34,833 nt of DNA from Candidatus Aquidulcis sp. (GCA_003670455.1 QWRK01000003.1:1-34833); one strand, 5' to 3'; counted from the stretch's first letter, positions 3,082-6,234 are shown. A program made the numbers and translations. The notes: generated by a model from the letters alone, not told the origin.

Positions 3082-3723
3082 CTAGCGCGCGTCGCTGCGG
3101 TGTGCACTCACTTGTGACCAGGGTGCACTTCTAAAGTCAAGACCACCCGGCTCTCCCGACGTGCGCGATCCAAGGCCGAGCACCTCGACTGCAGCGCCGG
3201 TTGGCAGCGCAAGTCGTGGGCCACCATTCGGTAGCGCCGCATCGGTAAGGTCGGCGAGTCGCTCATCGTTGCCGCCAGTCGCATGCGCCAGAATGCTCCA
3301 CGCACCGAGTGCACCGATGCCATCAATCACGCGAATGGCGTGGCCGCCGCAGGTGCACGAGGCGGCGCGCCGACCGAGCGCCATTGCCGATGCAGAGTCG
3401 GCGATGATCGTGAGGTGCGGCAGCGTGATGGCGTTCGTCAGCTCGCGCACTCGCTCTGGTTGATCAAGCAGGCGTGTTGCGTCGCCGCCACAGAGGAAGA
3501 GGGTGGTCGGTTCGGTGACCTCATGCGGCAGATGCGCAACCAAAGTGGCCTCGCGTCCGGCGGCCGACAGGAGCTGCTGCAGGGTGCGCGCCTGGCGATC
3601 ATCGTCTGAGGCGATGGAGGCGAGCAGCAGGGGGCCAGGCTGTGCGGCGAGCCAGTGCAGCGCCTCCGGCCATGCGTGGGCCGAGCGTCCGAGTCCGCCG
3701 CCAGAGAGGTAGAGGGTTGCCAT
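3082..3723 (-). CDS. Divergent peptidase S51 / class I glutamine-amidotransferase-like protein
   Basis: 'LSGGG', 'LFLCGGDA', nucleophile-like 'DSASAMALG' and 'ILAHA' occur in the order seen in cyanophycinase/PepE folds, but are degenerate. Confidence 0.55.
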   Translation of the reverse strand: MATLYLSGGGLGRSAHAWPEALHWLAAQPGPLLLASIASDDDRQARTLQQLLSAAGREATLVAHLPHEVTEPTTLFLCGGDATRLLDQPERVRELTNAITLPHLTIIADSASAMALGRRAASCTCGGHAIRVIDGIGALGAWSILAHATGGNDERLADLTDAALPNGGPRLALPTGAAVEVLGLGSRTSGEPGGLDFRSAPWSQVSAHRSDAR

Positions 3724-3760: not shown

Positions 3761-4828
3761 ATGACGGCAGAAACGGCTCTAGGGCGAATTGTCCTCATCG
3801 GTTCGGGCGAGATCGGCCCATCGATGGCGCCGCTGCATCGCAGCATCGTCGCCTCACTACCGAAGCGCAGCACCCCGTCGTCACTCGTTGCCCTCGACGG
3901 CAGCTACGACTTCCAAACCAACCGCGCTGAGATGGGCGAGAAGATCGCCGTCTTCTTCCGCTCGAAGGTTGGCATTCCGACGACCGTCATCGGCCTCCCC
4001 GAGACTGACCGCGCTGGCGCCGACCTTGCCCCGTCAGCGCTTGCGCCAACGATCGCCGGGCTGAATGCGGCCGACCTCATCTTCTTGGGACCAGGATCTC
4101 CGTCGCGCGCGCTCCGTCGCTGGGGTGGCACACCTATCGTTGAGCAACTCATCGCTCGCATTCGCAACGGCGCCACGCTGATCGCATCGTCGGCCGCCGC
4201 AGCGGCATCGGGGCGACACACCATCCCGGTCTATGAGATCTACAAGGCGGGAACCAATCCTGTCTGGCTTGAGGGACTTGACATCATCGGTGCGCTCACC
4301 GGTCTCGCTGTGGCGATCGTCCCCCACTGGAACAACAACGAAGGTGCAACACACGACACCTCACGCTGCTTCATTGGCGAAGGCCGCTTGCAGCAACTAG
4401 AGCGAGTGCTCCCTGATGGTGCCGCCATTCTGGGTATCGACGAACACTCCGCCCTCACCATCGACCTTGGTGCGAACAGCGTCACCGTTGGCGGCAAGGG
4501 TGCGGTGACGATTCGCATTCCAGGGATCGGCGAAACCGCACTACACAGCGGCGCAACAGAGTCACTGGCCGCCTTTGCCGCACGATTCGGTGCGGCTGCA
4601 GGTGCCCCACGCGCAGCTCTCCCAGCAACCGAGGCGCTCCTCCCTGTGCCGGCATCAGCGCCTGGTGTAGATGTGAGTGTCGCCGTGGAGCAGCTGATTG
4701 AACTGCGAGCAACAGCTCGTGCCGAGCGCCGATTCAGTGATGCAGATGCACTGCGTGCAGCAATCGAAGCACTTGGCGTGGAGTTAGTGGACGAGCCGAC
4801 CGGAGCGCGCTGGAGTCTTCGCTCCTAG
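3761..4828 (+). CDS. Peptidase S51/cyanophycinase-like domain fused to a CysRS C-terminal-like domain
   Basis: 'LIGSGE', 'IFLGPGSP', 'ASSAAA', 'IVPHW' and 'LGIDE'. After an Ala/Pro linker comes 'VEQLIELRATARAERRFSDADALRAAIEALGVELVDEPTGARW', resembling the CysS C-terminus. Confidence 0.75.
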   Translation: MTAETALGRIVLIGSGEIGPSMAPLHRSIVASLPKRSTPSSLVALDGSYDFQTNRAEMGEKIAVFFRSKVGIPTTVIGLPETDRAGADLAPSALAPTIAGLNAADLIFLGPGSPSRALRRWGGTPIVEQLIARIRNGATLIASSAAAAASGRHTIPVYEIYKAGTNPVWLEGLDIIGALTGLAVAIVPHWNNNEGATHDTSRCFIGEGRLQQLERVLPDGAAILGIDEHSALTIDLGANSVTVGGKGAVTIRIPGIGETALHSGATESLAAFAARFGAAAGAPRAALPATEALLPVPASAPGVDVSVAVEQLIELRATARAERRFSDADALRAAIEALGVELVDEPTGARWSLRS

Positions 4829-5607
4829 CGAGGAAAGCGAGAGCTGATCGCGCCCATGCGGCGCAGAAGAAAGCTCGGCATCAGGCTCAAGAATCGTGCT
4901 GAGAGTGCGTTCATCCATCCTGGAACCACAAGCGCGCGTCCATCACGTAGCGCCTCAAGAGCAGCACGGGCAACAGTGTCCGCAGAGGTCAGTAGGAAGT
5001 TCGGCAGGCCCGAACTCTGGCTCAAGCCGCCGCGCTCTTGGAATCCGGTTGGCGTAAATCCAGGGGCAACGCAGGTCACCTTCACGCCGAACGGCTTCGC
5101 CTCTTCATGGAGCGCCAGGGTGAAGTGCCGCACGTAGGCTTTGGTCGCAGCGTAGGTGGTGAAGCCAGGGAACGGAATGAACGAGGCGAGCGACGCCACA
5201 TTCAGAATCCCGCCACTCTTTCGGGGCGCCATCGCAACAAGTGCCGCGCGTGAAAGGAGCGTCAGCGCGGTGACATTGACAGCGATCTCATTCGCCTCAC
5301 CCTCTGAATCAAGCTCGGTAATCTTGCCGAATCGTCCGTAGCCAGCATTATTGACAAGGATCTCAATCGGTCGAGCGCCATCCAAGATGCGAGCTTCTAC
5401 CTTCGCCACATCGGCACTCTGCGAAAGGTCGGCGACGATCGTCTCGCTCGCCGCGCCAAGTGCGGCGGCGAGCCCAGCGACACGCGCTAGCTCATCACCA
5501 CGTCGTGCCACCAACACCAGGTCGTGGCCGCTCGATGCCAGGCGCAGAGCGATGCGCTCGCCAATGCCCGACGAGGCTCCCGTAATCAGTGCAATTGGAC
5601 GTGCCAT
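4825..5607 (-). CDS. Short-chain dehydrogenase/reductase (DltE/YqjQ-like)
   Basis: TGASSGIG, NNAG and YAATK motifs. True start is ATG 5607; the longer ORF runs through the tRNA. Confidence 0.92.
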   Translation of the reverse strand: MARPIALITGASSGIGERIALRLASSGHDLVLVARRGDELARVAGLAAALGAASETIVADLSQSADVAKVEARILDGARPIEILVNNAGYGRFGKITELDSEGEANEIAVNVTALTLLSRAALVAMAPRKSGGILNVASLASFIPFPGFTTYAATKAYVRHFTLALHEEAKPFGVKVTCVAPGFTPTGFQERGGLSQSSGLPNFLLTSADTVARAALEALRDGRALVVPGWMNALSARFLSLMPSFLLRRMGAISSRFPR

Positions 5608-5628
5608 GTGAAGAGTATGAACGAAGGA

Positions 5629-5705
5629 TGGTAGGGGGGCCTGGAATCGAACCAGGGACCGCCGAGATATAAGCTCGGAGCTCTTACCAACTGAGCTACC
5701 CCCCC
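5629..5705 (-). tRNA. tRNA-Ile (anticodon UAU)
   Basis: 77-nt cloverleaf: GGGGGGG TA GCTC AGTTGGTAA GAGC T CCGAG CT-TAT-AT CTCGG CGGTC CCTGG TTCGATT CCAGG CCCCCCT A CCA. CCA is encoded and the discriminator is A73. A CATACT -10-like box lies at 5730-5725. Confidence 0.93.
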
Positions 5706-5754
5706 GAGGGAGACTGACCACCGCAGTATGAAGCCTGCGGGCAGCTGTTCGCTA

Positions 5755-6234
5755 CTACTTGATCGTAACGGCCACTTCGAGCGCCTCGCGCTCAAACTCC
5801 GCGGTGCAGACCACGGTCACAAACCAGACCCCCTTGGTTGAGCCCGCTCGCCAGGTGAAGGTGGCAAGGCCGCCGCTAGGAACGAAGAGCGCGGCTGGGG
5901 CCTCCCCCTCACGTGCCAGCGCAGGCACACCGATCTCGCATTCCGAGCCGGCGCTCGCCCGAACGGTGAGAAGAACCTCCGCGCCACGGGCGACGGCAAC
6001 TGGCGGGTCGACCTCAAGGGCAATCGGCAGCGATGGCACCACGGATGGTGATGGGTCTACCGAGGGCGAAGTCTCAGGGTCGTTAGAGGCGGAAGCTGTT
6101 GCGCTTGGTCGGGGCGTGCTGGTGTCAGTGCCGCCGTCAAAGAGCGAGCCGATTGCGCCGAGGATGATGAGCCCGACGATAAGGGTGCCGCAGCCAGACT
6201 TGGTCGAGCGCTGTGCCGCGCGAAGGACGTTCAT
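5755..6234 (-). CDS. Hypothetical membrane-anchored protein (TM helix, Ser/Pro/Thr linker, beta-rich C-terminal domain)
   Basis: Starts immediately after the UbiA stop. N-terminal hydrophobic stretch, 'STPRPSATASA...SPSVDPSPSVVPS' linker and two Cys in the C-terminal domain. Confidence 0.6.
   Translation of the reverse strand: MNVLRAAQRSTKSGCGTLIVGLIILGAIGSLFDGGTDTSTPRPSATASASNDPETSPSVDPSPSVVPSLPIALEVDPPVAVARGAEVLLTVRASAGSECEIGVPALAREGEAPAALFVPSGGLATFTWRAGSTKGVWFVTVVCTAEFEREALEVAVTIK

Follow-up and report, generated by a model that had tools for sequence, protein, structure and literature searches.

The window analysed here, a stretch of 34,833 nucleotides, is contig C23 of a genome of 872,547 bases (62 contigs, 63.5% GC) that is an estimated 67% complete and that probably belongs to the genus Ca. 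Limnocylindrus, class Limnocylindria, Chloroflexota. ARAGORN, applied to the whole window, reports a single tRNA, a tRNA-Ile(tat) (Table 1), which is also matched by Rfam RF00005 at 68.6 bits (gathering score, 29), with model positions 1-71 of 71 covered. Its anticodon loop reads C32-U33-UAU-A37-U38, and its GGGGGGG acceptor stem comprises seven pairs, of which G1-U72 is the first; A73, A35 and U36 agree with isoleucine identity. The original prediction had described this cloverleaf, with its UAU anticodon and a U in place of the usual A at position 38, and on each point it is borne out: among the 11 U36 tRNAs (readers of ANN codons) of G004, a relative from the same genus, ten have A38 and the sole exception is tRNA-Ile(UAU), with U38. 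The prediction had also singled out the G1-U72 pair and the encoded CCA. Both are present, but neither is a special mark of this gene, because both occur in other tRNAs here: G1-U72 in 6 of the 43 tRNAs of G004, and CCA in 34/34 tRNAs of the window's own genome and 41/41 in G004. The tRNA-Ile(UAU) gene is real, and not an error.

Table 1. Features at and near the tRNA gene; positions count from the first nucleotide of the window.
Feature	Positions	Strand	Evidence or remark
tRNA-Ile(UAU) gene, 77 nt, encoded CCA, A73, G1-U72	5629..5705	-	ARAGORN, Rfam RF00005, cloverleaf, orthologues
Anticodon TAT (U34 A35 U36)	5669..5671	-	ARAGORN, sequence, cloverleaf
A37	5668	-	
Position 38 = U (C32/U38)	5667..5667	-	sequence; pyrimidine order-wide
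CATACT hexamer, candidate -10 element	5725..5730 (5730-5725)	-	19 nt upstream of tRNA; conserved
Second CATACT	5614-5619	-	6 nt before the SDR gene's ATG (5607-5605)
SDR oxidoreductase	4825-5607	-	neighbour of tRNA
355-aa protein	3761-4828	+	weak cyanophycinase (peptidase S51-like) match
213-aa protein	3082-3723	-	no family; divergent to the 355-aa protein

The gene had also been credited with its own -10-like box. Generic scans of positions 5400-6000 return neither a sigma-70 promoter nor a terminator; the hexamer CATACT itself fares better. The genus offers six unrelated flank contexts upstream of the orthologous tRNA: CATACT stands in five and TAGGCT in the sixth, and the 872-kb genome holds 40 copies of CATACT, counting both strands. 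Because it recurs in this way and is rare genome-wide, we consider the box to be probably real. Also of interest is that a second CATACT lies just downstream of the tRNA, at a spacing from the SDR start codon that fits the -10 box of a leaderless mRNA; two of the 40 genomic copies are thereby placed within ~110 nt at the tRNA/SDR gene. The surroundings are otherwise ordinary: GC content around the tRNA is 0.627 (range across the window, 0.56-0.66), further neighbours encode a UbiA-type prenyltransferase, an ABC exporter pair and an endonuclease III-like glycosylase, and there is no sign of a mobile element near the tRNA. The flanks vary among species of the genus, with no conserved neighbour gene. 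In the 355-aa protein encoded nearby, the C-terminal ~45 aa are similar to the final part of cysteine-tRNA ligase (E 3e-5).

We compared this locus with those of relatives, all of which are metagenome-assembled. Our class sample holds 91 genomes, the relatives in it all being at least 85% complete: the order is represented by the family of the genus (f1, five genomes including the window's own) and by f2 (26 genomes), and the sister families are f3 (30), f71 (29) and f72 (1). Thirty of the 31 order genomes are at least 91% complete, and some are in 2-7 contigs. Since the window's own genome is just 67% complete, absences from it rest on these relatives. A DNA search recovers tRNA orthologues from 22 of the 24 other genomes of the genus (the two without one are 82% and 54% complete), and ARAGORN calls tRNA-Ile(tat) at 23/23 genus loci and at three loci of f2. 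In the class sample, a UAU-tRNA pattern occurs in 5/5 genomes of f1 and 26/26 of f2, and in 0/30, 1/29 and 0/1 genomes of f3, f71 and f72, respectively; the lone f71 match, from an unpublished genome, is un-tRNA-like by eye. ARAGORN classes 30/30 order loci from this sample as tRNA-Ile(tat) with anticodon TAT; position 38 is a pyrimidine in every one of them, and at position 72 there is a U in 27 loci and a C in the other 3. A tRNA identical to that of the window is present in a further Ca. Limnocylindrus record (L044).

The proposed reading depends on base 5671, for which a check in relatives and reads had been suggested. That base is T in the 23 genus loci, the three f2 loci and the 30 class-sample loci, and a DNA run from another study (X5) spans the anticodon with no difference listed: the anticodon is TAT throughout, and never CAT. 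Metagenome runs from lakes and rivers, belonging to 12 studies, also contain the region around the tRNA. Among RNA libraries, X15 yields a contig over 5629-5697, with four differences, a non-matching end and possible DNA carry-over, together with a second contig over 5688-5875; contigs from X16 and X17 do not cover the body of the tRNA.

TilS is normally near-universal in bacteria. We searched for it with TIGR02432, an N-terminal model, at a cut-off of 93.6 bits, which TilS exceeds in 10 of 14 named control genomes. No order genome yields a match over this cut-off, either in a first sample (0/41) or in the class sample (0/5 in f1 and 0/26 in f2, hence 0/31). In the sister families the same search succeeds in 58 of 60 genomes (f3, 29/30; f71, 28/29; f72, 1/1), and in a sample of the whole phylum in 273/301. 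These counts include some unpublished genomes (G078, G213, G196 and G283 in the phylum sample, G345 and G366 in f71, and G374 in f3); when they are removed, TilS is found in 269/297 genomes of the phylum, 26/27 of f71 and 29/29 of f3, and the UAU-tRNA pattern in 0/27 of f71 and 0/29 of f3. No conclusion drawn here depends on them. Weak TilS matches in the order fall in a protein of ~530 aa; the only one in the window's own genome is GMP synthase (GuaA, 788 bits), and was rejected. Markers employed to estimate genome completeness and to build phylogenies include the TilS N-terminal model; where it serves as a completeness marker, these lineages would score as slightly incomplete.

The absence of TilS is visible as an empty slot. 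In G359, a TilS-bearing genome of f3, a tRNA-Met is followed by tilS (157.5 bits) and then by ftsH. In G004 and the window's own genome (contig C62), the same tRNA-Met has ftsH as its immediate neighbour, across a gap of at most ~150 nt, and tilS is missing; the ftsH orthologue at this slot has 70% identity and scores 680 bits with the FtsH model. Gene order thus indicates that tilS was cleanly lost from between tRNA-Met and ftsH, and this synteny settles its absence. The proposal that the lineage had lost tilS, which the original prediction had offered as an inference, is upheld by both the slot and the contrast between the order and its sister families.

Another key observation concerns the tRNAs with a CAU anticodon, among which we looked for the substrate of TilS, Ile2(CAU). 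The five genus genomes that are at least 90% complete each contain only two kinds of CAU tRNA; an extra CAU-pattern match in G016 is not a tRNA. The Rfam inventory of G004 (f1, 93% complete, 20 contigs) tallies with this: its 43 tRNAs carry 42 anticodons, and include one Ile(tat) and two with CAT. Missing from that inventory are the tRNAs Ile(GAU) and Ala(UGC). These two are usually located within the rRNA operon, which, to judge from their absence, is apparently unassembled in these genomes. One of the two CAU kinds is the initiator, recognised by an anticodon stem with three G-C pairs and by a mismatch between positions 1 and 72. The acceptor of the other is of the GGC type, and the same tRNA adjoins tilS in TilS-bearing families. 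We assign it as elongator tRNA-Met because it persists where TilS is gone, and elongator tRNA-Met is indispensable. This assignment is made mainly on logic, as the match to E. coli is weak or absent: the sister-family version aligns with E. coli tRNA-Met at 74% (E 0.2), and the genus version has no E. coli match. A third kind occurs in the TilS-bearing sister families, with a GGGCCC acceptor (C4-G69, C5-G68), the loop CUCAUAA and A38; aligned from end to end, it shows 79-80% identity with the gene between mug and nfeF in E. coli that is annotated as tRNA-Ile(CAT), and on this similarity is of the Ile2(CAU) type. An Ile2-type backbone with CAU was not found in the order when the class sample was searched.

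Two further features of these tRNA-Met genes attracted our attention. The genus initiator tRNA has A1 opposite A72 (L205:1501-1572, equivalent to G004:C6:52085-52156; C13:10454-10528 in the window's own genome), and in that of f3 the base opposite A72 is C1, as is usual in bacteria. In addition, within one genus of f2, species carry either of two elongator tRNA-Met backbones, GGCGGAG-type or GGCTGGG-type (L262-L268, from G349, G040, G036, G026, G025, G038 and G033), and the chosen tRNA-Met is the only non-initiator CAU tRNA, even in a 2-contig genome.

The codon that this tRNA would read is exceptionally scarce. ATA is the rarest sense codon of the window's own genome, with 113 occurrences in 207,371 codons (0.54 per 1000, or 1% of Ile codons), spread over 86 of 641 ORFs; our ORF caller is crude, and since some called ORFs will be false, the ATA counts are upper estimates. 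The frequency is 0.65 per 1000 codons in G004 (f1, the genus; 64% GC), 0.26 in G036 (f2; 73% GC) and 0.34 in the TilS-bearing G359 (f3; 71% GC). This scarcity across the class implies that AUA was already very rare when the decoder changed. With the drop in GC content in the genus, ATT rose ~15-fold and ATA just ~2-fold. ATA nevertheless occurs within real genes: 17 of 20 ATA-bearing ORFs tested in G004 have strong family matches, and genes with this codon there include ftsZ, gatB, glmS, glmM, acnA, murJ, ispH, ftsK, alr and others. We aligned codons of the window's own genome with 400 kb of G004 (191 orthologue pairs, 66,345 columns), and found 47 columns with ATA in at least one genome. Its partner is ATA in 11, ATC in 11, ATT in 6, a Val codon in 8, ATG in 3, Thr in 3, Ala in 3, Leu in 1 and Lys in 1. 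An Ile codon is therefore the partner in 28/47 of these columns, as compared to ~94% for ATT and ATC, and ATG in 3/47; conversely, 1.6% of ATG columns have an Ile partner. As Ile codons are far commoner than ATG as the partner, we read ATA as a weakly constrained Ile codon, and not as Met.

Bringing these lines together, we conclude, with a probability of about 0.82, that tRNA-Ile(UAU) is apparently the only reader of AUA in an order that, by its gene content, is devoid of TilS and Ile2(CAU). The TAT anticodon of the relatives, the lack of a TilS match in 31 genomes, the empty slot and the missing Ile2(CAU) all support the TilS-independent decoding that had originally been proposed. It could be argued that TilS and tRNA-Ile2(CAU) are present but unassembled or too divergent to be recognised, so that the UAU tRNA is redundant, as in Lactobacillus casei: after all, the window's own genome is 67% complete and its relatives are metagenome-assembled, and species with both a UAU tRNA and TilS do exist (PMC3575796). 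We regard this argument as very improbable, because a hidden TilS would have to have evaded, in all 31 order genomes, an identical search that detects it in 58/60 from the sister families, and to have left its syntenic slot empty; moreover, with just two CAU tRNA kinds, there is no Ile2 backbone with CAU for it to modify. It is no less far-fetched that the tRNA carries some different amino acid in place of Ile (such as Met, by which AUA would become a Met codon, as it is in many mitochondria), or that AUA is effectively unassigned and the gene is a relic. The rarity of AUA and the three ATA columns paired with ATG are compatible with such a scheme, but ATC or ATT is the partner of ATA in 17 columns, ATG columns are seldom paired with Ile, ATA lies inside ftsZ, gatB, acnA and glmS, and the tRNA is strongly conserved order-wide, with its stems compensated.

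For tRNA-Ile(UAU) to function as the AUA reader, it would have to be charged by IleRS. The enzyme of the genus (~1,100 aa; split over two contig ends in the window's own genome) is of type 2: Pfam DUF5915 is present and the Zn-finger domain is absent. Among solved structures, the 8c8w group, 1ile and cytoplasmic IleRS come closest, and type-1 structures score far lower. We take the 8c8w group to be P. megaterium IleRS2 (8C9E of the series is cited in PMC13752280, and the residue numbering fits). That paper reports two Arg residues without which P. megaterium IleRS2 cannot recognise the anticodon, and the equivalents of both are conserved in the genus IleRS. It also reports that this IleRS2 is stricter towards the anticodon than IleRS1; the variants named in the passages concerned do not include U34 (PMC13752280). 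A type-2 IleRS is also found in the TilS-bearing sister families (5/5), which indicates that the synthetase type pre-dates the switch in decoder and alone is no explanation for it, although type 2 may have permitted that switch. This enzyme would be the one that charges the UAU anticodon. We discarded two candidate adaptations of the synthetase: substitutions specific to the TilS-less clade, which in a comparison of five versus four sequences are inseparable from phylogeny (the G359 sequence, moreover, proved to be an ORF in the wrong frame), and a His/Arg difference near an essential Arg, since Arg also occurs in the IleRS of the TilS-bearing P. megaterium.

Comparative genomics shows a history of gain followed by loss, which we reconstruct from these genomes as follows. 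The ancestor of the order was a high-GC organism with a type-2 IleRS and ~0.3 AUA per 1000 codons; it acquired a tRNA-Ile whose UAU anticodon is encoded in the genome, and tRNA-Ile2(CAU) and TilS were both lost afterwards, tilS being cut out cleanly between tRNA-Met and ftsH. In the present-day cell, the tRNA would be transcribed from its own promoter (for which CATACT is the candidate -10) and trimmed, then charged with Ile by the type-2 IleRS, eukaryotic cytosolic homologues of which naturally charge tRNA-Ile(UAU); its U34 would pair with the A of AUA.

How such a tRNA might avoid AUG bears on the modification of its anticodon loop. We searched five genomes for modification enzymes (G000, the window's own; G004 and G023, both from the genus; G036 from f2; and the TilS-bearing G359 from f3). 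MnmG has no match in any of the five, and MnmE exceeds its cut-off in none, there being just GTPase-domain matches below it. MnmA and TsaD are present in 5/5. An xm5 modification of U34 is therefore unlikely in these genomes. The presence of TsaD makes t6A37 possible, though its formation is uncertain, as A37-U38 departs from the A38 of all ten other U36 tRNAs in G004. We note that MnmG and MnmE are missing even from G359, and that Corynebacterium glutamicum, one of the named controls, also has no MnmG match.

The same TilS-free system could also operate with a different means of reading A specifically, namely a modified U34: 2-thiolation by MnmA, pseudouridine, or the product of another enzyme. 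We consider this unlikely, if far from negligible. MnmA is encoded in all five genomes, but this enzyme is known to act on tRNAs for Lys, Glu and Gln, which have U35 and not A35; MnmE and MnmG were not found, and no conserved gene that might encode another enzyme sits beside the tRNA. Precedents in PMC3575796 point in both directions: eukaryotic tRNA-Ile(UAU) has pseudouridine at position 34 and a possible modification is raised for M. suis, but the tRNA-Ile(UAU) of M. mobile has an unmodified U34.

We hypothesize instead that tRNA-Ile(UAU) avoids AUG through one or more of five means, which we give in order of preference. U34 would lack xm5, MnmE and MnmG not having been found; the loop formed by C32 and a pyrimidine at 38 may weaken binding in the A site, such that only the Watson-Crick partner AUA is accepted; tRNA-Met would compete for AUG; the ribosome itself might discriminate, as it does in Mycoplasma mobile; and strong avoidance of AUA may contribute. 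The suggestion that the anticodon loop has been tuned to tell AUA from AUG is consistent with the pyrimidine at position 38, where the Ile2(CAU) tRNAs of the sister families have A.

The mechanism is already known in kind. PMC3575796 documents as exceptions nine species, from three clades, that are without tilS and have a tRNA-Ile(TAT), and counts 371 distinct TAT tRNA genes in metagenome data. The M. mobile tRNA-Ile(UAU) described there has t6A37 besides its unmodified U34; the type-1 IleRS is adapted by a Trp-to-Arg change, and the ribosome rejects AUG, which that of E. coli does not (PMC3575796). Our lineage resembles M. mobile in its small genome, in having neither tilS nor Ile2(CAU), and in relying for AUA on a tRNA with a genomically encoded UAU anticodon and on no other. 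It differs in that M. mobile has a type-1 IleRS, with Arg865 in place of the wobble-stacking Trp, and the IleRS here is type 2; furthermore, M. mobile is AT-rich, whereas this lineage has 63-73% GC and 0.3-0.65 AUA per 1000 codons. The closest set of components is that of Bifidobacterium and Neorickettsia, which, again according to PMC3575796, are TilS-less with a tRNA-Ile(TAT) and a eukaryote-like type-2 IleRS. As these belong to different phyla, the origin here would be independent; the loss is also fixed order-wide in this case and the TilS-bearing sisters already have the type-2 IleRS, and the likeness is one of components. Lactobacillus casei, L. plantarum, Cyanothece and Ferrimonas share a bacterial TAT-anticodon tRNA gene (PMC3575796) but keep TilS, and so decode redundantly, whereas here both TilS and Ile2(CAU) are gone. 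Finally, eukaryotic cytosol pairs a type-2 IleRS with a U34 Ile tRNA, as here, but turns both U34 and U36 into pseudouridine, according to PMC3575796.

Full-text literature searches brought up no relevant paper in which tilS or lysidine is tied to Chloroflexi or Limnocylindr-, to Saccharibacteria or Patescibacteria, or to the candidate phyla radiation. What is new is the phylum, the order-wide fixation and the ancestral state kept in the sisters. A whole order of free-living freshwater bacteria without TilS, within an abundant freshwater lineage, amounts to a clean natural experiment: families of one class are alike in IleRS type and in their very low use of AUA, and differ only in the decoder, which is TilS plus Ile2(CAU) in one case and tRNA-Ile(UAU) in the other. 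How a U34 tRNA avoids reading AUG, a long-standing question, thereby becomes open to direct test, and position 38 is a concrete candidate for the answer.

UAU tRNAs also occur beyond the order. Three other Chloroflexota genomes, G126 and G153 (both f25) and G233 (f54), have a UAU tRNA and no TilS that we could find. Their tRNAs, with an Ile2-type backbone (GGGCCC-type acceptor) and the canonical A38, look like simple C34-to-U derivatives, in contrast to the GGGGGGG acceptor and U38 of the window tRNA. Two additional Chloroflexota genomes, G252 (1.0 Mb, 99% complete) and G072 (88% complete), have neither a TilS match nor the UAU-tRNA pattern. The origin of the window tRNA is ambiguous by pairwise identity, which is 73-81% to both elongator-Met-type and Ile2-type CAU tRNAs, and we claim no donor.

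We extended this comparison by scanning species genomes with an acceptor pattern. At least 120 stretches match as G-rich-acceptor UAU tRNAs, and those listed include records from Ca. Limnocylindrus, Limnocylindrales, Limnocylindria and Chloroflexota/'Chloroflexia', besides others from Saccharibacteria, a single one from Uhrbacteria and several that carry the label Anaerolineaceae or Binatia. Among the genes thus obtained, at least 119 are tRNA(UAU) genes with this acceptor, and 117 of those 119 have a pyrimidine at position 38. TilS was found in none of ten Patescibacteria-labelled genomes with a tRNA of this type (0.7-1.0 Mb; completeness not given). Identity between UAU tRNAs of the two phyla reaches 84-91% for some pairs; when they are compared with the CAU tRNAs of the class, it is 74-77% at best, though the former values are inflated, since the search pattern forced ~25 shared bases. 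We tentatively raise the idea, which we think rather doubtful, that a G-rich acceptor, C32 and a pyrimidine at 38 define a distinct and possibly horizontally shared family of self-sufficient AUA decoders, in which the C32/Y38 combination would let an unmodified U34 read AUA and not AUG, and which might have allowed independent loss of TilS in Limnocylindrales and in Patescibacteria (Saccharibacteria and one Uhrbacteria). Common descent, transfer and convergence could each account for the likeness between the tRNAs of Limnocylindrales and Patescibacteria, which extends over just ~75 nt and is in part forced by the search pattern. In the Saccharibacteria and Uhrbacteria records (L041-L117), the tRNA-Ile(UAU) is of like design, with a GGGGG acceptor and C38.
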